Shown: positions 8,741 through 50,602, counted from the whole stretch's first letter. The stretch: 61,071 nt of DNA, filler included, from Sphacelaria rigidula (GCA_964200075.2; 7 parts of 7 records of this genome joined end to end with filler, not necessarily neighbours in it), one strand, 5' to 3'. Numbers and translations are program-made. Notes: generated by a model from the letters alone, not told the origin.

Positions 8741-10198
8741 CCAGAATCCACTGGCCTCACGCTCGATTAGAACTTCTCTTAGAGCATCCATACACGAAGT
8801 AAACAGCTGCGGCTTGTACCTTCAGGCATAGGCTACACAGCAAGGGTCATCATCCGCAGGATGCCCTTGTCCCCTGGCCATCATCCAGGATCCTACACAC
8901 ATGCTACATTTACTACGCCTTGGTGTATTTTGGCTACAGGACGGAAGTTCAAGGTTCCAGACTCGGGGGTCAGGAATGGAACGGTCGTCACTTGTACCTT
9001 GCCAGATGACCCAAGAAGTAACCAAGAAAATCACTCATCGAACACAAAAAAATCGAAGACAAAGCTCGACGCGAGAGGAAAAGAAAAGAAAAAGGGAAGG
9101 ACAAAAGAACAAAGACAAAAGCAAATCAAAACATAATGACGCAAAGGCAAAATAATCGAAACACAAAACCAGGGTCCAAAGCCCCCCAAAAAACACAAGA
9201 AAAAAAATACCAAATACCAAATACGAAAACAAAAGACGAAACAGAACATACAATCACTACAAGTACGGGGTAAATCAGTACGATAAAAAATGAATGGGGG
9301 GGGGAACATACGGGATGCCAACGACGCTACGGTGCAAGACAAGCGGCTCGAACGTGGTACACTACGCAAGGTGAAAGGGGAAGCAGACTCGGATGCGGCA
9401 TCATGAGTCATCTGCATCCCAAGCGGTGTCCGTGTTCCGTAGAACGGCTGTTTCGAGTTCGCCTTGGTCGTGTCGTTGGAGGCACCAGGATACCCTCCGA
9501 GCGGTCGGCTCCTCGGTGTAGTACGCACCATCCAAGCAAATCTTACCGGGACTCGGGTCATCGAGGAAACGGATAAAGTGGGAGTGGTCAGATGCAGGAT
9601 CGACCAAATGAATTTTACCCAACCACCACAGTGAATCCAAGGCCTTATACCAAAAGTAAGCCCTTTTCGGCAAGCATTTTCCGTGAAAAGACTGCATGTA
9701 TTGTGAACGCGAAATAAGGCTGCAGCCTGTTACAACAGACCGCGCTGAGTGTTCACGTGCCAGTTCCCGAGCGGCAGCTCCCTTGCGCATCGACCGATAT
9801 CTCGTATTCAACGAGCGGTGTTGGACGGTATCTGCTACCCGGTACAGCAACGTTTCCCGACGAAAATGACGCAAATCATCTTCACGCTCCCATGTAACGC
9901 GCGCGATACCCTTCCAATATGTTTGATACATTACCGCTATCTTACCTCCACGACCGCGAACCAGTTGATGGCCCGAAATCTTACCTACCTCAACGCGTTC
10001 CAGGGGTGCGTCCGCATCCTCGACCGTCGTATGATACGGCGGAGTTTTGATCGCATACTTGGTCAACACATACTGGCTAAGCCCTAGCAGCAGTTGTTTG
10101 GGTATGTCAGAGGAGCCAGGAGGGGGGATACACGGCTTTCATCGTAGCATCGAGACGCGATTTTTCGGTTTCAAACCAGGTTCACCCGTGGGAAAATC

Positions 10199-11818
10199 CT
10201 AATACAAAAGTTTCGCTCCCACTGGACTCTTTTCGGTCGCGGTAGTGCTTGGGCCAACAGCTAAAATTTCCCAAGGATCAGTCCAATTCAAGGATAGTTT
10301 CGCCTTCAACGCTTTGTCCAAAGATGATGATTTCGAGCTAGCCCCTTGATTGATGGTCTTCACATCGTTATACACCCATGCCCATTGGCCTACCTTCCAC
10401 ACCGGGCGGTTATGTACCACATCATCCAACATCGAGTTCGCCCCGGCCACCTTGGCCAAATTGATTTGGTTCTGTTCTCGTACCACTTCATATGCAAGAC
10501 GAAGACGATTGCTAACCGACAAATGATACTCTACAACATCACGATCCAGACTCTGATGCCCTCCTGTATTTTTGCGTTCGAATACCGTTAAAGGTAACCT
10601 AGGCGTGCGTCCAATATGAATTTCATTTGGCGACAAGCCCATAGCGGCATTGACTGAATTGTTATAGTTCATTTGGATAAGGGGCAGGTGTAGATCCCAG
10701 TCCATCTGTCTCTCATTTGCTACAGCAGCAAGCATCTGTGCCATCGTATGGTTCACTCGTTCCGTTCCACCATTGGTGGAAGGGTGATATGAACTGGTAA
10801 AAATGCGATGGGCACCCAAAAGGTCACTGACGGCGGCTGAAAGTTTGCCTGAAAAATGCGGGCCGTTGTCAGACAGTAAGCGTTTGAGCACACCCCACTG
10901 TTGGATGTACAAGTATACAAGAATGTTGGCGGTACCTTCCGCGTTATAACTACTGGCGGGGACAGCGTGCATCACCGCATGTCGACTAAATCTATCCGCA
11001 AACAACAAAATATACTTGTTCCCACTATCCGTCAGGGGCAAAGGACCAAAATAGTCCCACGAAACTACTTCACCAGGCCCGTTTAGGAGTGGCATGGAAA
11101 CTATCGGCCAACGAACTGTTTGACGAGAACTTTTTCGCGCCTGACACAAAAGACAACGCCTCACCCACCAATGACAACACTGATCCATACAAATCCACCA
11201 ATAAAAACGTTCCAAGATCTGGGAGGTCCTCATGGCGCTGAAACGAGTCGATGCCTGTGAATGGCATTCGTGTAGAACCCATGTGCGCAGGAGCATCGGG
11301 ACATAGATGCGGATGGGTTCATCACCTAGCAAGCGGGCATGTCGACTTGCAGGCTTTCCCCTGGTGAGGGCTGCTGTGGGCCGGCGAACAAACAGAACTA
11401 TACCATCATCATCCGTATGTAGCATACCTTTCCTTGAAAGTTCAGTAACTCCATCCTGGGTGGGCGCTTTGAGAGTCCCGACTGGCAAAGGGAATTCGGT
11501 TTCTGAGAATGGACATGGTTGACCTTTAGATCGATAATTGATAGCTGATTTACAAGCAGGTTCTGCCTGCTGTTTGCGGGCCCAATCGGCGTGGGAGAAG
11601 AGATACAAACATTCCTTGAGTACGCCATCTGTTGGAGCGTCTACTTCGTGTTGGGTCGGTTCGGGGTGCGGTTGGCACGATGCGGTGATTTCGGAATCAA
11701 GGGTGAGCCTACCAGTTGGTGTACTGTCAGACGGAACGTTAACGTCTACTCCTGCGTCGATTAGCGTGGATGGTGTTGTGGTGGTGTTTGCAATATCATC
11801 ACCGAGGGAGGGGGTCAT
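10199..11818 (-). pseudogene. Gypsy integrase segment (Zn finger, DDE core, GPY/F-like)
   Basis: HECH...CLLC; D(SWDYF), D(LSDNG), E(GTERV); NWTDPWEIL. Confidence 0.92.
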
Positions 11819-12902
11819 AGCCCTGCCGTGGTTTCGTCTATGGTTGGCAGGGGCGGCACGGTCGGGGTCGATTTTCTGGGGGCCTTGCGTCGTGGAGATT
11901 GAGGAGGCGCAAGGAAACTATCGGGGACCGGGGTGGGGGCAGGGAGGGGAAGGTCAGGACCAGATACGGCTAATTTGGTGGCCGTTTCGGCGGTTCGCCG
12001 TCCACGAGTCGTACTCGAAATCAAATCTCGAACTTGAACTGGTAAGGCGGAGTCAGCAAAGGACGGTTCTACACCTGCTGCGAAAACCATGCGCTGGCCA
12101 GTTGCACGAAAACGATCATAGCCAACAATATTCGTAGACAGTCCATTCCAAACTGAGTACAACGATTGAGGTTGCAAGCTGCCCAGAACGGATACGTGGG
12201 CTGTGGTCGTCAGCCCACCCATGCCTAAAGCCGGCGTTTCTCTCAGTGAAAGTGGTGTGTAGAGACCTTTATGTCCATTCCTGCCAATGAAATACACTAT
12301 CTTCGGTGGGATCGGTGATACGTCCCATGGGGGATTCATCGATAGGTTGAGCCGGTGTGGGCAAACGTGACAGAAAGTCGGCGTTTGCATTTTGTGGGCC
12401 TGTGCGATATTTCAACTCGAAGTTGTAAGACGACAGGATTTCGGACCAGCGTTTTACCCTAGCGTTGTGTTCCGCCATTTTGGCAAGGCTTTCCGAAGAC
12501 TTATGACCCGTATAAATCACAAACGGGATGTCATACAAATACTGACGCAGACGTCGCACGCCCGACACAACTGCGCCGGCCTCTTGTTCCATGACAGACC
12601 AATTCTGTGTATTCGGAAAAGTGGTGCGACTCAGATAGACAATGGGACGAACAGTAGCATCGACTTGGTCCTGTTCTAATGTGCAGCCAAACCGAATTTT
12701 GGAAGAATCTGTGTGGAGCCGAAAAGGGCGGGAACCCTGCTCCGCGGGCGACCAGTCGGGAAAGACGAGAATCGGCGGGCGCGAAAGGGTGTCAAGATGA
12801 CGGCGGACGTTTTTTTCCATTTCCAATGTGAACACAAATTTCACCCCTTTTTTTGAGGAGGGTGGTGAGGGGTTTCAGCGTTTGGGCAAGGTTTGGCAAG
12901 TA

Positions 12903-14187
12903 CACACGTGGACAAATAGCACCCTGTAGGACGAGCTGCACAGGGTTCTCCACAGTCGTTGTAAAAACCCCTGTGTAGCATTTTCAAACCCTAGTACCTG
13001 TAATGGCATTTTGGATAGCGTTTTTGTCGAAACCCTGCAAGCAACCCTGTGGAGAGGTCTTCCCAATTTGGAAAATTCCAAATTATTTTGGTAAAACAAT
13101 CTGTGAATTTATTTTTTTGGAATAGCTTCTCCTGCTGTCCGAGATAAATTCCTTCTCGCCCGATTTAATCGGGCGAAGAGGAATTTATCTCGGACAGCGG
13201 GAGAAGCTATTCAGAACAGATCCTTTTTCGTCCAAAATGAATGGGCAAAAAAAGGATATATTTCGAACAACTTCTTCTGCTGCGCAAATCCCATGCACAC
13301 TGGCTGATCAGGAATTTGAACAGCAGAAGAGGCTCGAAATAAATATTCACTTTGCGCTCCAATTCATCCGGAAATTGGGAAAAAAGAGATTTATTGCGAA
13401 CAGCGTCAGCTGGGCATATCTCGCATACTGCACCGTTATCAGCATATGGGATGCGACGAGCAGAAAAAAATGTTGAAAGTAATTCGTCCTTTTACCCCCG
13501 GTCCATGCACATGGGCTAAAGGATGAATAATTCTCAACAGCCTTTGCTGAATGGAGATCCGACACACTGATTACGATCAAGTGTGTGTCCACACGCCTAC
13601 GAGTTTAGATACGAGGCTTCCGCTCAAGACGTGGATATTCGGATGACGGTGTACACCTCGCATATGATTGCACATTGCGGTTGAAAACCCCGTGGTCCGC
13701 AGTCTACCAAAATCACTCAGGCGAATATGCTTTGGTTCAGAGAGATTTTTGTTTGATACTTATTACAAGCACAAAATAATTTCGCCGCAAATAACAGATC
13801 AGGTACCTCAGTAGGCAACCTGGCACACTATTAAGCACAAAATTGTGAGTTCGATGCTCACCACTGCCTCTTGACCGTTTTTCTCTGCCAGTACGATGCC
13901 CATGCTGCATGGAGTATATTTTTCGCATGCTATAAAGGCTGCACAGCATATTAACAGCGATGAATTCTACACGGAGTGACGAAATCCTATGAAGCGGTCT
14001 GCGTGGCACAAAATAATTACCCTACAGTCAAATCCCCGCGAGAAACCCTGCACAGTTTCCCTGAACCCTGTGAAGCGTTCTGTGGGGCGCAAAAAACAAA
14101 ACTACAGCCAGATCCCCGCGAGAAACACTCCACAGTTTCCCTGAACCCTGTAGACGTGCTCCACAGGGTGCTATTTGTCCACGTGTG
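12903..14187. mobile_element. 1285-bp non-autonomous TIR DNA transposon inserted in the gypsy RT/RH connection
   Basis: 25-bp perfect TIR CACACGTGGACAAATAGCACCCTGT with a TA duplication (GTAC is equally possible). Excision restores ...SYYRQY|LPNLAQTLKPLTTLLKKGVKF. Subterminal AACCCTG repeats. Confidence 0.92.
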
Positions 14188-14189
14188 TA

Positions 14190-15090
14190 CTGTCTGTAGT
14201 AGCTTAGACCTCCCAACAAGGAACGCAGTTGAGAAATGTCCCGTGGCATGGGCATATCGGAGAGTACGGCGACCTTGTCGAGGCTTGGTCTACGACCTTC
14301 GGGTGTCATGCAATGGCCCAAGAACTCAGTCTTCGTGGCGCCAATGCGGGATTTGGAGGGGGCGAGTTTCAAGTTGTGTGGTTCAAACCGATTAAAGAAT
14401 GATGCCAACTGTTCGACGTGTTCAGCCGGTGTGGAGTCGTGGCACACCGCATCATCAAGGTACATATGGCATTTGGGCAATCCATCAGTTACACGGAACA
14501 TTGCACGTTGAAACGCACCTGGAGCTCCGACGGCACCTTGTGGTGTAACCAGCCACTCGTACAAACTTGATGGCGTGCAAAACGCTGTCATTTCAATGGA
14601 ATTTGGATCCATCACGAGCTGGTGGTAGCCGAACTGCACGTCAAAGTTCGAAAATACTTTTCCCCCGCCAAGAGAGTCAATAATTTCATCAATCCGTGGA
14701 AGTGGCAGCCGGGCGATTTTGGTGACAGCGTTCAATCGTTGATAATTGACCGTCAGTCAGATTTTGCAATTATTCTTACGGACGACTGCTAAAGGCGAGG
14801 CCCACGGAGACGTCGAGTACCGAATTAAACCGGCGGACAAGTAACCATCGAAGATTAACTGGATCTTATCCGGTAAGAGGGGGTTCGTACGGTACGGGCT
14901 CATAGCGATAGGCGGAGTGCCATCAAGGATTTTGATCTTGAACGGTGTCGTGGTATATCGACCTCAATCCAAGGGTGCGGTAGAAAACCGTTCATAATAT
15001 ATAATCAAGATGGATCTCAATCTATCGATTGCAGTGGGTGTTCAACCATCGCCAGATAGATCAAAAACAATATGCCTAAGTGAGGGAGGA
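14190..15090 (-). pseudogene. Gypsy reverse transcriptase with in-frame stops
   Basis: PYRTNP...STSPWASPLAVVRK...NYQRLNAVT...LPRIDEIIDSL...GYHQL...TAFCTP...PQG...YLDD. Confidence 0.93.
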
Positions 15091-15092
15091 AA

Positions 15093-16383
15093 TAACCTCA
15101 CCGTAGAATGGAGGCGGAGTACTAGAAAAACACCGGAAAGAAAATGAAGAGAAAAAAAGCTACTGTGTTGACCTTCCCCGTGTGTGGACAAAGCTGATGC
15201 CACCACTTATACCAAAAGGTGTACGAGCTGAGCCAGCCGAGAAGCATATGTGTAGTCTGCGGGCTCATTGCACGGCCATTTTTTTAATCGCGTGGAACTC
15301 CCTGGCAGCAAGCCCCAGTGCAGGCGGGGGCGAGTAAACAAAAATCGACACTTTTTTTCCCTCGGAAGGGGGCAAAAAACGGCCATTTGGGGGCCGACTA
15401 CTTTTTTTGCAGCCGTTCGGCGGCATGGTTCAAGCACGAGCTGCAAATTTCAAACACATTTTTTTGACCCAGAAAACACCGTAAAGTTCATTTGAAAAAA
15501 AAACCCGATCGGACATCGTTAAGGGCCCGTACAAATTGAGGTGCCTTTACTTATGGGACAGAGGAAGTGACTGATTATTGCCCTGGACTCCTGGAAAACA
15601 AAAAAAACTTGTGTGCACTGGTATGTGCTTTTATTATGCCTTATTCATTGTACATACCAAATTTCAGCATCCAACTCTAAATATTGGCCGTACAATGGGT
15701 GGTTTAGTGACGGGGTCAGGAGAAATTCGGAATAGTATTTTGCAGGTCACTTACCGGCCCACGCTTGGTGTTCATGTCTTGAAATTCTGTATGGGCTGTG
15801 GCTAGGGCACAATTTAGGAAACAGAGGGGGTGAGGTCGTTTTGTATTTTATCCGTTGGTTTAGCGCGTTTCAGTCTGGTGAAAATCATTTTTTTACGAGA
15901 ACGCATGACGACCTCTACCAATATATATATATATATATATGAAGGCCCATTTTTACTATTTTTGCACACCTCTGTGGTTCTTTATCCTGAGTTTCACATC
16001 ACAATTATGAAAATGAAGCTGAAAAATTGGGATAGGGCCCAAGGGCAGTGTTCATTTCTCTTCAAAACTGCCCCAAAACTCGAAAACAAATAAAAAGAAC
16101 GAGAAAACGGACAAAACTGCTTTTTCAAGCTTTATTATGCACTAGCGGTTCTCTATACGAAATTTCATAGCATAACTCTCAAAAACTGAGTACCGGAGGA
16201 GAGATGGGTTGATCCCTTGAGACCACGGACTCATGCCGTGGAAGGGGAGGGGTTCAAAGTGTGAGAAAAAAAAACTCTCAAAAACTGAGACACGATATCC
16301 AAATTTAGTTCATCTAGTGCCTCTGATTGTAATGTACTGATTTTAGTATGGAAACATTATGCGCCCTATATTTCGAGATAATT
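15093..16383. mobile_element. Composite insertion of DNA-transposon fragments interrupting gypsy pol upstream of RT
   Basis: Pol reads ...FQTLWDD on one side and PPSLRHIVFDL on the other. The insert contains a TACGAGCTGAGCCAGC end and segments similar to 45360-45750 and 26480-27000. Boundaries are approximate. Confidence 0.75.
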
Positions 16384-18224
16384 AATCATCCCACAACGTT
16401 TGAAAACTGGCGCGTTATTCTGGGGAAAATCTATCCAGTAATGCAGTTGGGGGTTGAGGTTCAGGCGCATCTGGGGGATTTGTTACCACCAGGGGGTCAG
16501 GCATGTGTAGCGGAGGGGGGCCTGTGGATTTCGGGGGTTCGGTCGGCGAGTTGTTGCCCGCAGGGGGGCACACATCTGACAGAACTGTTCGTATGAGAGG
16601 CGCTTGAGCATAACCCAACAACTGACCGTTGAGCATATCGAAACATACAGGGGACGTGAGGTTAATGGCCTGTCTACCTTCGTGGACAAAGACCTCGGTC
16701 TGTTCAAACGGACCAACCTGTGCTTGGTCAGGTTTGAGCAATTCGACCAAATAATGTCCTGTGAGGGCGGGCGATCCATTGCGTCTCATGAGGTTTACTT
16801 GGATAAGTTGGGGTTCACGAGAAAGCGAGACTACAGGTTCACCAACATAGTACAGACGTAAAGCGTTACCTGTTTGGGTGGGGTCATCCTCATAAGCATG
16901 AGCTCCCGAATCAGTGTCGAAGTGACCCAGTGGCAGTTTGCCTGTGACTGGATGGTTCGGGACAAGTGTGTCCGTCGTATACGTGTGTGTGGAAAAACGA
17001 AGCCAACTATCTCGACCCAACAAAACATAAAAAAAAGCATGGAACCGTCGGGCACAATTAGTGCCCATACGGACAACCGAGCAGTGGGAGTAGTATCCTG
17101 GTAAAATTGTACACTTAGTCTCACCGATTGGTTGACCGTAAGAGATGTGGAGGATAAAAACCCACCAAAAACACGAGGGTGCACGGTGGACAGACAATGC
17201 TCGTCCCCCGCGCCTGAGTTGATCATCTGTTGCCAGCAGCTGGCTGTAACGAACGTTTGAGGCGAGCCAGAGTCTGTTAGTGCAAGAGCTATCAAATGAC
17301 AGTTTACACGCGCTCCATTTGTTGCTCGAAATTTCGAGTCAGATCGTCGTTGAAAGCAGCAACGGTTGTTCGAACAAGCTNNNNNNNNNNNNNNNNNNNN
17401 NNNNNNNNNNNNNNNNNNNNNNNNTTAATTAATTAANNNNNNNNNNNNNNNNNNNNNNNNNNNNNNNNNNNNNNNNNNNNTACGTTCCTTCCGTAGTTCA
17501 TTACGTTTCTTCCATACATTACACAAGAACCTCTTACATATCTTATCCCCGTTTATTGCTAAGGGGGGGGGGGGCTTTGAAGGGGATAACCTCCTCGCGT
17601 GAGAACCCGCCTGAAGTACTCATTATCATTGTGCCCGACGCCACATACGTGACTAGACCACAATCCGACTACAGAAGAAGCGAAGAAACGAAAAAGTCCC
17701 GCGAACATAGCTTCGCCCGCCAAATCTGCAACTGATAGTGAATGATGCAACTATGATACGGAGAGGACCGGTGCGTCCGACAATTATTTGACGTAATGCT
17801 ACTGCAGTGGAAACTCCCGCGGTAGTGGTATACGTTATCCTCAGGGAAAAGTCAAATAGATGCAATGCAGGTTCAACATTTTCGAGAAGAGTCAGGTCGC
17901 CGTACGACTCTGAACGGGAAAAGACTCTGGGCGAAAAAGACGGCGTACTACTTGCACCATAGGGGTATTAAGCATTGAGGCCTGCGTCTCACACCGCTTC
18001 CCTCAGCGAGAGAGATCTCAGCAGAGGCAATATCATTGTCAGTGGTGGTTTTTGGAAACGTGATAATAATGGTCCTTACGCCGCAGCGTTTAGCGAGAGT
18101 TATCTGAGCTGAGGCAACAGTGATATGATTTGACCGTTGAAAATCCCCCCGAAGAAGTATACATACATACGTGGGAACCACCACATGGACGGGACAATTT
18201 TCCACAAGTGTCTGTCAAGGAGTC

Positions 18225-19043
18225 TAAGGCTACTACCCCTAAGTACGGGAGTGGTAGTCTCGGGAGCCACGGACTTGGCCATGGGACGTGCCTAGACAGT
18301 CCGTTCTTGTGTGGAGGGAGACTACAGGATTGAGATAACATGTGCCTCGAGGAGGCACCGGGATCGGTGCCGTCTCGAGTTGAAGTATGACTATTACTCC
18401 TGGGACGGGATGACAATGACCCGGACGGAATAGACGTTGGCCCGGACGGAATAGACAATGATCCGGACGGGATAGACATTGACCCCGTCGGGACAGACTA
18501 GTGTCCCTGAGAACGTTCCCGGAACGATGCCGGAGATATGAACGTTCCTGAAACGGGGGGGCGGTTGTATAGACACGTGGAAGACTTGTAGACTACCCTG
18601 GTACTCACATCACCCCCCCAGATATGACGGAGTAACCGTGTCCTACCGTCGACGCCAGTAAGGCTACTACCCCTAAGTACGGGAGTGGTAGTCTCGGGAG
18701 CCACGGACTTGGCTGTGGGACGTGCCTAGACAGTCCGTTCTTGTGTGGAGGGAGACTACAGGATCGAGATAACATGTGCCTTGAGGAGGCACCGGGATCG
18801 GTGCCGTCTCGAGTTGGAGTATGACTGTTACTTCTAGGACGGGATGACAATGACCCGGACGGAATGGACATTGGCCCGGACAGAATAGACAATGATCCGG
18901 ACGGGATAGACATTGACCCCGTCGGGACAGACTAGTGTCCCTGAGAACGTTCCCGGAACGATGCCGGAGATATGAACGTTCCTGAAACGGAGGGGCGGTT
19001 GTATAGACACGTGGAAGACTTGTGGACAACCTTGGTACTCACA
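18225..19043 (-). mobile_element. TRIM: two 385-bp LTRs and a 49-bp internal region
   Basis: Direct repeats at 18225-18609 and 18659-19043. On the minus strand the core reads C-TGGCGTCGACGGTAGGA (PBS) ... GGGGGGG-TGA (PPT). 4-bp TSD AGTC/AATC. The empty site GTCAAGG-AATC-ACC is visible at 19634-19647. Confidence 0.9.
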
Positions 19044-19130
19044 AATCACCTTTCCACAATGGCGGCACCATGATATAGCTCGTACGCTTCACGAACAGAA
19101 GGTCCTGGATTTAAATCCCGGATCCCACCA

Positions 19131-19383
19131 GAGTGATGCTACGGTAGGGTTGCACTTTTTGAGCGAAAATGTTTCTCGGGGTGTTGCACGGATCATTTTG
19201 AGAAATGGCATCATTTTCTCTTGAAAAAGACTAAAAATGGTGCCGATTCACGAAAAGGCCCATGTGTGCACCTCCATGTCCTGTCCCCAGATATTTGGGT
19301 TTCACAGTAAGCCCCATACATTTGGGCTCCTACAAAAACGAGACCAAGAAACAAAAAGTGCAACCCCTATCGTAGCATTGCTC
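19131..19383. mobile_element. MITE with GAG..CTC ends and 4-bp TSD (Sola2-like)
   Basis: TIR GAGTGATGCTACGGTAGGG(G)TTGCACTTTTT / AAAAAGTGCAACCCCTATCGTAGCATTGCTC. TSD ACCA on both sides. Confidence 0.85.
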
Positions 19384-20145
19384 ACCAAAATGATGGGAGC
19401 CAAGAATATATACGGTGAACACCCTCTGAAGCAAAGTTCATAACTCACGAAAAATTACCTGCGGCGATTGTTGGTTGCCCCAACACACGTAGATAACATG
19501 TGAATCAAAAAGCAAGATTCCAACCGCTAGTCGGCACAAAACGTTACTCCTACAAATCTCCAAGAGGTTCATGATAGGGGGGGGTGATGTGGAAACCACC
19601 ACATAGAAGAGACTAATATTCCCACAAGTGTATGTCAAGGAATCACCCTTCACATGTGAGGAAATAAAGTGAGATCGACTGATTTCAAATGCAAAATTTC
19701 AGGGGGAAGTTAAATCGTATGGCCCCAACCGGATTACTTCTCACCATTATCGTGCGAAAAATGGCATACTTGCACCACACGGCCCGACAACATCGAGGCC
19801 AGTGGCTGACGCTGGTGGAGTGATGGAGCCACAGAGAGGGAGCGAGAGGAAGTAATTGAGAGGTGAATATGGTCAACAGAGAGAGAGGAGCTGTCGGCGA
19901 ATCGAAGAATCGGGGAGTTCCGACAATGAAAACGGAAGAAATACTGCCGTGTGGTTCATCGCAGAACGTAAAATGTTGCGCCGCCGTTCATCACATAGAT
20001 GTGAAGTTCCCGGGGGGAAAACTGATATATGGTTCACAACGCTCGAGCGATTTTGGAAAAGGAAGTGCAATAAGTCTGTACCATACGTGGACAACTTGTC
20101 TGCAGCAGACGGGCCTGTCCGACCATTCGCGACGAATAGATTAGT

Positions 20146-29503: not shown

Positions 29504-30964
29504 TCAGTAGCACATCACGTATCCACGCATCTTCCCTGCCCCCATACCTTCACAGCCACCGACGGCGCGATGGTTGTGGAAATACCCGCAGTCCGGCGGT
29601 CCATGACGCCCACGGGGCCCACAGTGGACATACTCGTGCTCACCATCCCCGTTCTCCATGGGATGGCCGTGACCTCCGCGGCGACGGCCATGATGAGCAA
29701 GTCTGTGCGAATCCTCATCTCTCAGCGCCATGAGCATCACCCCGACGCGTCCGGGCCCGCCTTTATGTCCACCTAAGCGCCCGCCGTGACAGGGAGGCCC
29801 GTGCATGTGGCCATCATCGCTGGGACCGCGCATCGGTCCACCGCGGTGACCCGACCCGTGACGTGGTGCCGATGACGGACCATCGTCTCCCCGCCATGAT
29901 GTGCAAGGATGACCGCAAAACCGTCCACCGTGCTCGAACCCGCCGCGGCATTGAACGCCGCCGTGCATGTTGCGCTCGTCGTGCTCGTGCTTGCCGTGGG
30001 GCCGTTCTTGCGTCACGCTATGCGCCTTGCCGTAGCGACCAGAACCACGAGGGCCAGGAGGATCCCAGGAGGGACAGCACGCGACGCTCTGCCACAGCCC
30101 GCCGCGGCCTGCACGGGAAGGGTGGCCGTGTTCAAGCCTGCGGTGGCACGGGCCGTGACGCACATGACCGCCCTCGTCTCCGCTCACGTCGCGCTCGTGA
30201 CCACCACCGTGACCATATCCATGAGGACACGCAGGGGGGGGAGGGAAGGCGAGGTAGCCGAGCGAGTGACCGCCTCGGCGGTGCCCTCCTCGGACACCGT
30301 GACCGCGACGCCGCCCCCCGTTTCCGTGCATGACACCCAGGGCCTCGCGATCTACCAGTCTAAGTCGCACCAGACGACCAGGTCCCACGCCGAGGGCGTG
30401 AAGCAGGTGCTTGGTCTCGAAAGGGCGTATGTTGATGCCGCCCGCGATCAGGGCCGTGTAGATAGGGTGCTTCGCCTTCCTGTCTCCAAGGTGGTGTTGA
30501 GCTTGAGTGTCGTGCGCATCCGAGTCGGAGTGGCTGTCTCTTCCGGAAGGCTGTTGCCCACCATTTGAGCCGCTCTCTGACATGTCCTCTTGTAACTCTT
30601 TCTCATTGTGGTTGCCGCTATCGCTGCTGTCGCTGCTGTTGATATCCCTGCACTCCCACGTCGCGGCCGTGACATTGGTATCGTCGCCATCAGGCTCGGG
30701 CGTATCCTGTGGGCTCATTCCTCTCAGTAGCCGCCGAGGAGCCAAACCGTGCACCACGAGACGGCGAGGGCGAAGATCAAGCAGAGCAATGGTCTTCCTG
30801 GCGGGAGTCATGGACTGCACTTCGTAGTCGTGACGGAGGTTGCGAGCTGCCACCTTGTACAGTTTGTTGGTACCCTTGGCGGCACGCGCATATTCGTCTT
30901 GAGCCGAGGCAGACAGGTTGATGATGTCGTCACAGTGTTTGTCTTTGAGGCTACTCTGCACCAT
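29504..30964 (-). CDS. Intronless His/Gly/Arg-rich protein of unknown function (~486 aa from first ATG)
   Basis: Uninterrupted GC-rich ORF in unique sequence. Two ordered blocks are separated by an acidic Ser/Asp linker and followed by a long Gly/His-rich low-complexity tail. The start codon is uncertain (the frame opens at GTG 30991). Confidence 0.75.
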   Translation of the reverse strand: MVQSSLKDKHCDDIINLSASAQDEYARAAKGTNKLYKVAARNLRHDYEVQSMTPARKTIALLDLRPRRLVVHGLAPRRLLRGMSPQDTPEPDGDDTNVTAATWECRDINSSDSSDSGNHNEKELQEDMSESGSNGGQQPSGRDSHSDSDAHDTQAQHHLGDRKAKHPIYTALIAGGINIRPFETKHLLHALGVGPGRLVRLRLVDREALGVMHGNGGRRRGHGVRGGHRRGGHSLGYLAFPPPPACPHGYGHGGGHERDVSGDEGGHVRHGPCHRRLEHGHPSRAGRGGLWQSVACCPSWDPPGPRGSGRYGKAHSVTQERPHGKHEHDERNMHGGVQCRGGFEHGGRFCGHPCTSWRGDDGPSSAPRHGSGHRGGPMRGPSDDGHMHGPPCHGGRLGGHKGGPGRVGVMLMALRDEDSHRLAHHGRRRGGHGHPMENGDGEHEYVHCGPRGRHGPPDCGYFHNHRAVGGCEGMGAGKMRGYVMCY

Positions 30965-32940
30965 TGCCTTGTTGTCCGTGGCAGTGACCACTCCGGTGCT
31001 GCTACTGCTGCTGCTGCTGCTCTACTACTGTCACGATCGTTTTCGTTCCGAAATAGGTGTTGTTAATCGTTACTGCCAAAAATCAGCGCTGCTATGGTTT
31101 CATCCATTTGGGGGCACGCATACCACCGATACTGCACGCAGCCACGACTGGTCTGCATGTCGACACGTTTTTTAAGGCCCTTCACTTGACCGGTGCTATA
31201 CGCGTTGTTTGGACGCCTCCACGTCCCTAAGCTGTTCCAAAGACCACCGTCATGCGAGACTTTTGCGCGGCGGTTCGAATATGAGCACGTGATAATTTGT
31301 TGTCGACGCAGCCGATCATGTGTGTACTTCGTGTGATCACGCCCTTTTCCGTATCGAATGGGTTGGTCATTCCCAATTTTTACAATGTTTTGATACGTAC
31401 AGGCCGGGGTGACATTCGCTGTCGAGATACTTGCTCTCCTGCGACGGTGACAATCCTTGAGTTCGATCAATATTCTCGAGCCACAATGTGTGCTAAGCGT
31501 GCTGTTTGTGCCATGAGTAAAAACTACCCTAGAGAAACACTGCTATCCGCAGAGCCTTGGATTCTTACGAAAATGTACTAGTATTGGATTACAATTTTCA
31601 ATTTTCAGGCCACACGGGTTCACGCGCTCTGGCCAGTCCCTAAATTCGTTGGTTTCCCGTGCCGGGTCTTGTGAAACAACCCCGTTCAAACTGAGTGAGC
31701 GCACCGCAAACCACACGTGGCGAAAGGAGGTGGTTCTCGGAATGACAAGTGTGCAAGTCGCACGGTGCATTTTAGGGTGATTGAGCAGTATGACTTCTTG
31801 TCCGCTGCGTTACTCCTTCACTCCACATACAACATCATCGTCTCAACAATAATAGCTGAATCGTGTCAGACAAATGGACCACCTGGGAAGAGCATCCACC
31901 TGGACAAGGCCTACTATGTGGAGTAATAGTGTGTTCGGCGAGTCGAATGAAGGGTGAGCTGCATCCTGCTAAGAATCTCGCATTTGGATGACAGCCTACA
32001 GTGAGTTGCTTTATTTTGCGGTACCGCCACTTCCAGAGACAGCCACGTTTACACTGCCTCACGGGTGTCTAACCAAAGGGGGTGGGGGCGGGGGGGTGGG
32101 GTCTGAATCCCAATGGGTTCAAAAGCGAGAATGGTTGTCGATTCAACACGTGACCCACCCTGGTCGTGAAGGGGTTCACTCGTGGATTGATCGGTTGATC
32201 GTCGTACATTAATCGATCCCGCAGGGTCATTATCCATCCGGTCGTGTGGTCATTATCCACGTCATAAGGCGTACCCGATAAATAAAAAAACGGATTCGGG
32301 AACACTCGCAGCAAGTAAAGTAAAGAAAACAGAACAAAAAAGTAGAGCAGACACGAACAGAGTAGACTCAAACACGCACGCACACACACACGTACTCGAC
32401 ACGAAAGATAGCCAGCTACAGCGCGGCAAGGTTATCGAGCAAGGTTCTTCATTCATTTATGTCTTACCCGATAATAATCTAAAACCATAGTTTTCGTCGC
32501 TATTGAAAAGCAACACACTTCAGGGCGCGGGTACAGAGTATGACGAACAAAAGAAAAGGATAGTCGGCGACGAAATGAGTTGGCGGCAGTGGGTCGAGAG
32601 AAATTGTCTGGGTTCGAGGCCATTCTATCCTGGTTGTTGGTGTTATCACTTGGCTTGTTGGGTGTGAGCGTCAATATTCGACATTTTAGTGGGAATGACA
32701 GTCTCATCGGGCAATGCCTCCTTCTTACTGTACAGACAGCGTGCACACAACGCTTGTTTCGTCCAAATCGTCACGGCAGGCACGCCGATTAGAGGTCTTT
32801 GCCGACACACACTGCGCCCAGGACACTCTTCGCAGCCCACCCGTTCCCCTCCTTGCCCCAGGGTTGTCGGTATGCCTTGGGTTGAGATCAGGGGTTATAG
32901 GGTTAGGGCGAGGGCTAGCCCGACGGCGTGTCTTCGCAAA

Positions 32941-46205: not shown

Positions 46206-49200
46206 TGCGACGCCAGCCAGTGAAAGCACTGTTGGATCACCGCTGTTGAGGGACTCCCCAGTCTTACTGGCCTCAGTTTCAGTTGTCAGCCTTTACGACA
46301 TTCTTATTACTCAGGAGTGCCCTGGAAGCGCACCAACTTTCTAGACATGCAGATACCATCTCCGTGCCCCTAGTCAATTTCCATCTCATCACTACCGACT
46401 CAACGTACGGCGTATTTTCGTCACAGCACCCCCAAAGCGCGTTGGACGAAAATCGATCGACAAGCTTGAAACACAGAAAACGCCAACACGATGAGTAACT
46501 CAAGATTGAATACCAAACTCATTCATAATGCGAGCAGCAACGGCATGAGTCACGCGCAATTTACGCAACTCCTTGGTAAGAAATTCCGGAGCGGCCTCAA
46601 AAATATCCTTGAAAGGCTCCCACGTACGCTCCTCAACTTCGAAACCAACTCAGTCGACCAGCACGATCAATGAACGATTATCTGCTTCTGCCACTCGGAC
46701 GATACCAGCCATCTGAAATTGCCTCTGACTGAAAGCATGCTGGAACACGTCCTCAACCTCAGCCGTAACGTTAAGCTTCAAGTCTGCATAAAAACGCAAA
46801 CGAGCTACATGAGCGGTCTGAACACGACCCGAAACAATGTTCTGAATCTCAAACACGTGCGGGTGGTGAGCACCAACCACTCTCCATGGACCAGTCCAAG
46901 TCGCCATCAACTTGGGCGTAACACCCGGACGACGCACGCGTGCATACAAGACATAGTCGCCTACCTCAATATTCGGCAATTCCAGCCCCGACGAGGACCC
47001 CTCACGTCTACGCGCACGTCCAGCGGCAACACGTTCCTGCACTTGAACATGGAAATGTTCCTGCAAGTCCAAGACTCCTTGCAATGATCTCTTAATTTGA
47101 ACATCGTCCGAAACATCACAATTCCATTCCCCGCCGACGAAGACGCCAGCACCGAGGAAGACGTCCGAGGGGCACGACCAAACATCACGTGGCACGGCGT
47201 ACTATCGTAACGACGACGATACGCTGTATCAAGCGCCCATTGCACCGCCGGCAACACATCCACCCACTCGGAAACCGCTCTACGCTGCTCGAGAAGAATA
47301 GAGCGAAGAGCACGAACTACTTCCTTGACCATGCGTTTGCACGTGCCGTTATACCACGGAGAATACGCTACCGCAAAGTGGTGATCAACGCGCAAAGCCT
47401 CTCGCAATCGGGCCAAGATCGCATTCTTGAACTGCGTGGCGGCATCACTCACCCACACACACACGGCACCCCCAAAGTGTTGCACCAATTCAGCAAAGAT
47501 GCAGCGGTCGACTCAGCAGTACACCCTGCTGCTGGTTCCAGAGCCACAAAGTTGCTCAAACCATCCATGATTACCAAAATGTATCGAAACCCAGCATCCC
47601 CCGACAAACCTTGGGAAGCAAGCGGGCCACTATCGCCCACGTACAAGAAATCAAGATGAACGACTTTACTAGGCGTGGTCCCATGGACCGTTTCGCCGAG
47701 CGGGCGGGGAACAGCATCGCCCGCCCTCGAGTCAGCACAGAAAAGACACTGGCGGACAAATTCGCGCATATGAGTTTCTGTTCCCTACCAGACACAAACC
47801 TCTTGCAAGCGCATGAGCGCCACGGCCACACCACGATGCCCGGCGTCGCGCATGTGCGCGCAAATCATCAGACGTATCTGCGACTGCTCGTCAGAACTCG
47901 GAATCCACCAAACGTTTCGGCCATGCACATGCACACGAAACAGACCTTCAGTGTTCAAGATAGCAGTACCAACGTCCGACTCGAAAGATTGCACATCCGC
48001 ATCTTCGGCCCCAAGGTCTTTTCGTTGTGCACGGCGGACAACAGATTTGGGCGGCATCGAGTCATCAGGTTCACACGGATCATACACAGCCACAGTGCGA
48101 ACAAGCATTTCAATTTCAACTGTAGGCACCTGCATGACCAAACTACCCCAATGGCACTCAAATGCATCGGAAACATTGGGACCTGACAATCAGGACGAGG
48201 ATGGAGCAGCGTCACGGCATGAGCCACCAGATCCTTCGCTGCCGCCCACGCCTGCAGCCTGCCTTCCGTCCACGATGCAGCCATCTCCGGAAACGCCATC
48301 CCTGGGGTGGGCCACCCCGCCTGAAAATTCCGTACTACCAACCCAAGCGCCGAAAGAGCCGCCATGCACAACGCCGTCCAACTTGGTTTCACCGGATCGT
48401 ACCGCCGCGGCTTCGTCTCCGTCGCGGACGCCACAGGGTTTAGCTGAACACGCTCGGGCTCCACGCGCGCTGGGGAATCACCCCGCAGCGCGGGCCATAA
48501 CGCGTTGACGCGGCAATGCATTATGCCGCGCAGGCGCTCCGCTTTTGAGACGCTGAGGCCTGTCGCCCCAGCATCCGTCACGCTCTCAGCCAGAATGACC
48601 TTCCGAGCGGACTCCTCTTCCGCTGGAATCATTAACATCTCTGGGCCGCGCTTTACCTAGCATTCTACCTCCGCACCCCGCTCCTCGGCCACCTGCCCTC
48701 CAGCCTCCTTATACGCATCTTCCGAGAAGCTCACGCGAGGACTGCCCAAAACGGCGCGCATCTCCAAGCGCGGACCAGGCGGAGACATCCATACCTTCAT
48801 GGAGTCCCACAACCGCCGAGCGTTGACGCCAATATCCTCAAGCATCGGCGAACCCGAGAGAATAACGCCATCTGACCCCGGCATGATCGCAAACGAGATT
48901 GGAGGCAACTGCGCCGGCTCCAAGGAAGTCGTCAAAGTCAGCTGCAGCGGAATAGTACGCTCTGTGACGTAAAGATGCTGACCCGACGCGGTGACTGCCT
49001 GCCGCGCCCCGAGCGAAAACGCCTTACGCAGCGGCACACCCGGGAGAAGACGCTCCAACATCTTTACAATCTGTATCGACAGACTCACATGACCCGTCAA
49101 CTGGGCGCCTGAATCCCACTTAGCCCGAACCCCAACGGCGCCACGCTCCCATTGATTTGGGAGACACAGCTCCGCAGGAACGTATTTTCCCGCAAACTCC

Positions 49201-50602
49201 ACTGGCAATCTATTCGCCGACCGATGCGCCGCTAATCTCACTTGACGTCACGACCGCGCAAGCTGTACAGGCGAAGGCGCCCCGGCAGGTTCAAACGGCA
49301 CCGCCGGTGGGTATGACCCCTAGCCAGCAGACCAAGAATTTGTCGAACCTCCGACCAGCGCGTCAGCAGGCGTCGCGCCTGGCGCTGCTGCCGGTGTCGC
49401 CGCCGGCGCCACCACCGGCGCCGGTGTCTTCGACACTGTATAAGTCGGTCTCACCTGCACCGCCCGTTGCGGAGCAGCAGCATCTACAGCGGCACCGGGC
49501 CTAGAACCAAACCCATGCTGACACCGCTGCCCCTGCCCCCGCTTCTGCTGCTGCTACTGCTGCTGCTGAGGACTCGACTGCGACCTTCCATCGCCGGAGG
49601 ATCCGCCGCCGCCGCCGCCGCCACGGTTGCCTCGTCTTTTGCCCTTGTGCTGACGATGCTGATGGCGCGCGGCATGAGACTACCCAGATTCTCCACCGGA
49701 AGACGTTGGGCAATCGCGCGCATAATGGCCGACCTGGCCACAACAGTGGCAAGTGCCCGCCGCATGCCCAGCGTGCTTTCTGATCACCGCAACCACTTGC
49801 GGCGGGGTGATGATGACCTTTTCTATGCTCCAAACGAGCAAACACTCTCTGCACATAAGTTGGCACTTGTTGAGTCATTGACACCCTCCGATGCCGCACA
49901 GCGCCCTCTGCGTTTGCGGGCTTCACACGCTTCTTGTACTGAAAGTACTTTGTAATAAAAGTGCGAGATGCACTCGCTGAGTACCTATCCCCGTACTGAG
50001 GAGGTTGCAACTCTTCCGGCATGACCACGGGTGTCGCCAAAGCTGTAACCGACTATCTACGAACCTTTTGCAAGCCCGCGGACCTTTGCAAATTGCATTT
50101 TCCTTGCTTCGTCGCCGCACCACACAGTTGGGGGAGCCTCTAAACTCCCGCTGCACGCAGCCTCAGCAAGTCTCCAGTCTGGATCAATCACAGGCTAGCC
50201 GCATTTCTGCAGCCACCACCAGCTTTAACCCTCGTCACGCGTCCTTGATGTCAGGTTGTCCCCAGCTGCCAGATTCACTTCGCCGAAATCCTTTCCAGCA
50301 GGTCTCTAGCACTAACAATAGCACTAGCACTAGCACTAGCACTAATATCGATATTGTGACACTAGCCAGTGGAAGCACTGTTGGATCACTGCTGTTGAGG
50401 GACTCCTCAGTCCTACTGGCCTCAATTTCAGTTGTCAGCCTTTACAACATTCTCATTATTCAGGAGTGCCCTGATAAGGTCGGACCTGCAGATACCATCT
50501 CCGTGTCCCCGTTCATTATCCAGAACCCTCCAGAATCTCCGTGCCTGTAGTCATTATTTCTCTCATCACTACCAACTCAACGTACGGCGTATTTTCGTCA
50601 CA
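46206..50602 (-). mobile_element. Internally deleted Ty3/gypsy element with two LTRs
   Basis: LTRs at 46206-46425 and 50355-50602 (TGYGAC...GTCACA). Gag with CCHC knuckle CHCCGQVGHYARDC (~49710-49752), protease WDSGA, RT/RH stubs, integrase H..HRG..CLFC, LDFL, SDAA, GPWRV. Frameshifted, with no clear TSD. Confidence 0.9.

Follow-up and report, generated by a model that had tools for sequence, protein, structure and literature searches.

TRIMs that carry sequence from small-RNA genes are known only with that piece in their LTRs. Helenus elements are TRIMs with tRNA-derived A and B boxes in the LTRs (Kojima 2024, PMC10886601); they were found by screening the LTRs of Repbase and, in the accessible text of that paper, are known from fungi, animals, and Selaginella and are not reported from algae. 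Cassandra, which is 5S-based (accessible text of PMC7215508), and Ajax likewise hold 5S-derived sequence (A/IE/C boxes) in their LTRs, and Cassandra is transcribed by Pol III. All cases cited in the accessible part of a sugar-beet survey from 2026 are LTR-borne (PMC13570524). In the main text of the paper on Ectocarpus TEs, tRNA is not mentioned and the LTR elements are 3.9–14.5 kb long (PMC12477816); the FASTA libraries of that paper may contain a relative. Here, we report a TRIM, i.e., a non-autonomous LTR retroelement, now decayed, from Sphacelaria rigidula (GCA_964200075.2), in which the tRNA-like piece is internal.

The window, i.e., the whole stretch of DNA that was analyzed, is 61,071 nt long, filler included, and all positions below are counted from its first letter. 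The earlier note described the element at 18170–19654 as a miniature LTR retroelement of ~0.4 kb interrupted by two nested insertions, and this anatomy is confirmed: a split 5′ LTR, PBS, tRNA-like segment, PPT, and 3′ LTR were all located, all on the plus strand, and the insert-free length from the coordinates is ~405 bp, the length of uninterrupted family copies. The left part of the 5′ LTR (18170–18224) aligns with the 3′ LTR and with family LTRs; its first base is mutated and it terminates in one copy of the 4-bp target duplication of the first insertion. This insertion is a second TRIM (18225–19043, minus strand), a direct repeat of two ~385-bp LTRs flanking a ~48-bp core. The right part of the 5′ LTR follows (19044–19058), with a CA end and a T-run close to it, then a PBS for host tRNA-Ser(GCU) in a 17-nt form (19060–19076; two mismatches in this copy) and the 54-nt tRNA-like segment (19077–19130; about tRNA positions 21–73). 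The segment reads, in order, as an unpaired anticodon region, a variable loop, a T-arm (19105–19121, including a B box at 19108–19118), a 6-nt acceptor-like strand, and CCA (19128–19130). The second insertion is a MITE with terminal inverted repeats (19131–19383, strand not assigned); it is missing from other copies, and its flanks are an exact 4-bp duplication, which takes in the CCA. The remaining ~200 bp of non-coding internal region (19384–19575) starts with a strand that, in the short subfamily only, pairs across the CCA as the second arm of a hairpin, and leads to the PPT, a G-run plus TGA (19576–19587), and to the 67-bp 3′ LTR (19588–19654), which has TG..CA ends and no B box. No intact TSD was found around the window copy. 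Related sequence and a MITE-free join are present in four contig sets, three of which may be RNA by guess only, and no RNA run was listed among the sequencing runs containing the stretch. Elsewhere in the window, at 29504–31021 on the minus strand, there is a 505-aa open frame rich in His, Gly, and Pro repeats.

In its own genome (244 Mb) the element is one of many. The 3′ part as query gave at least 40 matches among 181 candidates, and a relative from the longer subfamily gave at least 40 among 266. From 79 loci, 63 PBS-anchored copies were obtained, 41 of them with both LTRs; four of the 41 came via an exact PBS search and one via an exact T-arm search, which biases the sampling to that extent. 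The two-LTR copies are 378–582 bp overall and have no coding region, and their LTRs (mostly 63–70 bp, typically 66 bp) have TG..CA ends. A 4-bp TSD is exact in nine of the 41 and matches in at least three of four positions in 27, compared with 0.5 and 3.3 for shuffled pairs; an exact 5- or 6-bp TSD was found in none of the 41. The paired LTRs, the TSDs, and the low LTR–LTR identity (median 0.80) together identify a true, old TRIM family. The earlier note had also considered that the tRNA-like segment might be a chance fragment between two repeats; paired LTRs and TSDs recur in other copies and the segment is family-wide. There are two subfamilies, a short one of ~405 bp and a long one of ~460–500 bp. 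Comparisons between them use 37 of the 41 copies (23 short, 14 long), i.e., all except L018 and L183 (large insertions), L064 (a deletion), and L179 (a near-duplicate of L165). L193 is a divergent copy of the family.

The 4-bp TSD, by analogy with animal Helenus, which is mobilized by Gypsy (accessible text of PMC10886601), points to a helper that is probably a Gypsy element. Fragments in Gypsy order (RT-RH-INT) lie ~6 kb behind the same PBS at one of five loci; these are fragments only, and no autonomous partner was identified among these loci. The nested TRIM belongs to the same discussion. Its LTR copies are identical at 370 of 385 positions (96%), its 4-bp flanks have one mismatch, and its core consists of a PBS and a G-run PPT as in the host TRIM; one LTR end is without the canonical dinucleotide and there is no B box. 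We take its primer to resemble another tRNA-Ser. A further LTR family of ~367 bp, here family B, is young (95–99% identical; L061, L070, L098 (=L229, L236), L101 (=L230), L063, L085, L091, L100, L111, and L112), and no autonomous partner was found beside it at 30 loci. The PPT, the TGTG-type start, and the 4-bp duplications are common to the nested TRIM and family B, and the resemblance suggests that the TRIM, the nested TRIM, and family B are served by one helper clan. The window also holds, on the minus strand at 9031–17424 and 46650–50052, two decayed Gypsy-like elements, in which we take the recognizable frames to be RT, RNase H, integrase, and a chromodomain-like domain, judging by their motifs.

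In the PBS, TGG is followed by 15 nt complementary to the 3′ end of a host tRNA-Ser(GCU) gene at L086, a gene whose flank has no CCA, and nine of 37 copies match this 18 of 18. The 18-nt and 17-nt PBS forms occur in 14 and nine short copies and in two and 12 long copies, respectively; both forms in both subfamilies would be expected if the primer overwrites an imperfect PBS. In three copies the duplex of PBS and host tRNA-Ser(GCU) over 17–18 nt reaches −26 to −35 kcal/mol, and there is hardly any reason to doubt that this tRNA primes reverse transcription. The earlier note had proposed that the CCA end inside the element might itself do the priming. Although 33 of 55 copies have a CCA, it is internal and without a free 3′ end, and the duplex of the PBS with the tRNA-like tail of the element is only −4 to −5 kcal/mol (three copies); Helenus likewise has no such complementarity in the accessible text (PMC10886601). 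Since the PBS matches the 3′ end of host tRNA-Ser(GCU), the internal CCA is not the primer, and the self-priming proposal can be set aside with near certainty. Self-priming on the LTR of the Tf1 type was also considered and rejected, the best duplex (−10 to −12 kcal/mol) being far weaker than that with tRNA-Ser.

Family B bears on the same primer. Behind several of its single LTRs stand TGG and a perfect PBS; at four of ten loci the sequence continues into antisense tRNA-Ser(GCU), from ~45 nt of it up to the whole, which shows directly that tRNA-Ser(GCU) is used as an LTR-element primer in this genome. Some of these LTR-plus-tRNA units are apparently flanked by 4–5-bp duplications. The units resemble reverse-transcription intermediates that integrated while still carrying their primer; on the opposite strand they have the order tRNA-CCA-LTR, the kind of chimera that figures in the strong-stop model of SINE origin. 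Family B normally has another PBS, which is imperfect (10 of 33 rows). Another repeat (L072, L087, L090, L095, L108, and L109) contains a 15-nt complement of the tRNA-Ser 3′ end with neither TGG nor an LTR end before it.

What is the tRNA-like piece, and where did it come from? The earlier note read it as the 3′ half of a tRNA-Val with an encoded CCA and, on that ground, as a mature tRNA captured by reverse transcription. A family-wide tRNA-like piece with a T-arm and B box is indeed present; the CCA as a retro-captured mature end does not hold up. An enzymatically added CCA stands 8 nt after the T-arm in tRNA numbering. Among the 55 copies with a findable T-arm, 33 have the CCA 6 nt after it, and eight of eight host tRNA-Ala genes among those listed end in CCA natively, with no addition. 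Nor is the identity tRNA-Val: the "anticodon" triplet is mostly CAC in the short subfamily (22 of 23 copies) and mostly CAT in the long one (10 of 14), the anticodon stem is unpaired while the T-arm is paired, and no tRNA was called. ARAGORN returned no tRNA gene in the window, and Rfam found no match to tRNA or 5S in the region and eight loci, its matches there being chance hairpins and one T-arm-sized tmRNA fragment only. A search for Val/Ala loops in the host gave seven matches, all Ala and none a nuclear Val.

We then compared the piece with 72 targets, i.e., 66 tRNA genes and six repeat heads. The best target is the A/B-box head of a repeat, here repeat P, with a mean score of 34.4 (shuffles, 14) and a gapless alignment over 41 columns; the best true tRNA is tRNA-Ala(CGC) at 30.9. 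With the T-arm left out, the repeat P head still leads, at 21.4 compared with 16.8 or less for any tRNA. Spacing, triplet switch, and closest match to a repeat head thus leave the captured mature tRNA-Val unsupported. Please note that the host tRNA set rests on the scoring of 63 among 16541 candidates and is without nuclear Val, Ala-AGC, Leu, Trp, Tyr, His, Gln, and Asp; this incompleteness leaves some probability to a direct tRNA source. One route from such a source would be template switching onto a mature tRNA that bore its added CCA, with a small acceptor-strand deletion afterwards. It would fit the finding that similarity between subfamilies stops at or just after the CCA, the rank of tRNA-Ala(CGC) as top-scoring true tRNA, and the copying of a primer tRNA into DNA in this genome by family B; it sits poorly with the 6-nt spacing, with the natively CCA-ended Ala genes, with the non-tRNA features common to the piece and repeat P, and with the antisense orientation of the known primer captures, unlike the sense orientation of the piece. 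We consider it possible but unlikely. Since repeat P diverges from the piece right after the T-arm, it is a cousin rather than the donor; the two probably share descent from one tRNA-derived, SINE-like head, and the alignments favor, with reasonable though not high confidence, a SINE-like source over a mature tRNA. A CCA near a T-arm, in any case, does not prove mature-tRNA capture.

Repeat P (L187:158-400; L194–L223) is a ~235-bp MITE-like element with ~50-bp terminal inverted repeats and a Pol III-type head: its left end is tRNA-like with A and B boxes, and it has inserted time and again into its own terminal palindrome (296 candidates). Also abundant in the genome is a tRNA-derived SINE whose A and B boxes are intact (L116–L142); unrelated to the TRIM, it dominated the matches to a broad A/B-box pattern (1320, of which 100 were listed). 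The genome further contains two other SINE-like heads (L188/L189 and L192), and organelle-type tRNA genes on short nuclear-sized contigs (L046, L047, L075, and L083), which are probably organelle DNA insertions.

The B box raises the question of a promoter. It scores 12 bits or more in 28 of the 41 copies, i.e., at tRNA strength (9.5–18.4 in 30 host tRNA genes); the window copy, unlike most copies, is decayed at 4.0 bits, where host tRNAs in the same comparison reach 9.8 or more, and the best B-box score among the 41 3′ LTRs is also 4.0. No A box reaches the tRNA level: the best site has ~1 bit compared with 5–17 in the 30 host tRNA genes, and for this reason there is little to support Pol III transcription from the B box. 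The PBS doubling as an A box was tried and rejected (−7 bits). A weak, permissive A-box-like motif, the only such motif in the window copy, spans the LTR/PBS junction (19052–19062, plus strand). From it one may build an internally promoted TRIM, a TRIMp3, in which the B box recruits TFIIIC and the degenerate junction A box sets the Pol III start 12–20 nt upstream, inside the 5′ LTR, with termination at the T4 of the 3′ LTR end; the genomic RNA would then have a ~15-nt terminal repeat, much like Cassandra, and the promoter would have moved out of the LTRs, with Pol III starting upstream of it, within the final ~25 nt of a 66-bp LTR. The spacing is agreeable, as the B box begins 48–50 nt after the PBS start in most copies and the permissive motif lies ~58 nt upstream of it in 27 of 37 (the accessible text of PMC5391098 quotes a range of 30–60 bp), and 28 of 41 copies have a T4 within the final 12 nt of their 3′ LTR. 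The slow divergence of the piece between subfamilies and the 18-bp terminal repeats that Cassandra makes by Pol III (accessible text of PMC10886601) point the same way. However, the same permissive motif turns up in 38% of shuffled windows, the matrix score of the junction candidate is about −3 bits compared with 5 or more for tRNA genes, an identical T4 sits in the 5′ LTR just past the proposed start, and internal T4 is not depleted (13 seen, 13.7 expected). We regard both this arrangement and the relocation of the promoter that it entails as improbable, and a Pol III promoter role for the piece is, from these scores, quite likely absent. Solo B boxes, according to the accessible text of PMC5391098, bind TFIIIC without TFIIIB or Pol III.

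The piece has nevertheless diverged less than the remaining interior, so that it may still have a role. Between subfamilies it differs in 4 of 54 columns compared with 38 of 165 in the 3′ core (Fisher p=0.01), and in 22 of 23 short copies the long subfamily is matched more closely by the piece than by the core. The sole T-arm change between subfamilies is at the purine-variable position of the B box. The LTRs differ in 5/66 and 4/66 and the PBS in 0/17. As a sign of promoter selection the low divergence is weakened by its extent, since it covers the piece as a whole; moreover, the piece adjoins LTR and PBS, and a single block exchanged by recombination would give the same pattern. In a more divergent copy the piece (0.67) shows little extra conservation over the core (0.65). 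One reading is that the piece is kept as an RNA structure (a packaging, dimerization, or primer-activation signal) or as a TFIIIC-only chromatin site. In LTR elements, signals of these kinds sit directly 3′ of the PBS, which is where the piece is; its conservation spans the entire 54 nt and not the B box alone, its T-stem is intact here and broken in repeat P, and the short subfamily has gained a foldback hairpin that includes the CCA (12 of 23 short copies reach −8 kcal/mol or better vs one of 14 long). Set against this, the LTR-PBS-piece unit folds no better than shuffles (z −0.7, −1.2, and −0.1), except when the young hairpin is included, and the block explanation would account for the conservation too. 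Selection for such a function is, to our judgment, doubtful.

The nearest precedent is Helenus, not Cassandra. Both Helenus and the present family are short non-coding LTR elements with a PBS, a PPT, a host tRNA primer, and a non-functional tRNA-derived sequence, and the proposed origin of Helenus by SINE2 insertion (accessible text of PMC10886601) is another likeness; by this analogy our TRIM may have arisen in the same way. The differences are also clear from that text: in Helenus each of the two LTRs carries the tRNA piece, complete with A and B boxes, whereas the present one is single, internal, 5′-truncated, and has a B box only. The tRNA-derived sequence thus lies 3′ of the PBS and not inside the LTRs, and there is no conserved pair of A and B boxes; as these are the two defining features, we do not file the family as Helenus. 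The Rfam scans gave no 5S rRNA-derived sequence of the Cassandra/Ajax kind, the common ground with these TRIMs being the possession of small-RNA-gene sequence. Neither a cloverleaf nor a CCA 8 nt after the T-arm is present, as a tRNA gene or captured tRNA would have. An ordinary TRIM/SMART agrees in size, TG..CA LTRs, PBS, PPT, TSD, and mobilization in trans, and differs from ours in the very short LTRs (66 bp) and the internal relic of the latter. With tRNA-derived SINE heads and solo B boxes (ETC sites) the piece shares a degenerate tRNA fold and a retained B box; here it stands inside an LTR element, without a SINE tail or A box. An internal tRNA-bearing TRIM, or any algal case, was not found in the literature searched, a scope outside which Repbase and most subscription papers lie, and the internal, B-box-only layout is, within that scope, a variant not found in print. 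The Helenus screen, as its accessible text describes it, was limited to the Repbase LTR dataset and would therefore have missed an internal form.

Taking the lines of evidence together, we favor, at a probability of roughly 0.55, the view that the piece is what is left of a truncated SINE-like head and that it travels in the PBS leader either as a passenger or as an RNA element acting in cis. A founder element would have acquired, just behind the PBS and in sense orientation, a 5′-truncated tRNA-derived SINE-like head minus its A box, and the piece would then have been inherited together with the PBS-proximal leader. The element RNA would be transcribed from the LTR, or by flanking read-through at a master copy, and, as the evidence strongly implies, primed for reverse transcription by host tRNA-Ser(GCU), with integration by an autonomous helper, probably Gypsy, that also serves two other non-coding LTR families of this genome. 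Most likely, the piece is not a working Pol III promoter. Were the TRIMp3 arrangement true, the LTRs could shrink to integration ends and solo LTRs would be promoterless, and the family would be the first TRIMp3 of such layout and, within the literature searched, the first algal one. Transcription driven by the internal B box would offer an LTR element a route to abandon its LTR promoter and would explain the minimal LTRs; with the piece a passenger, the family would simply be one more entry in the sparse record of algal repeats.
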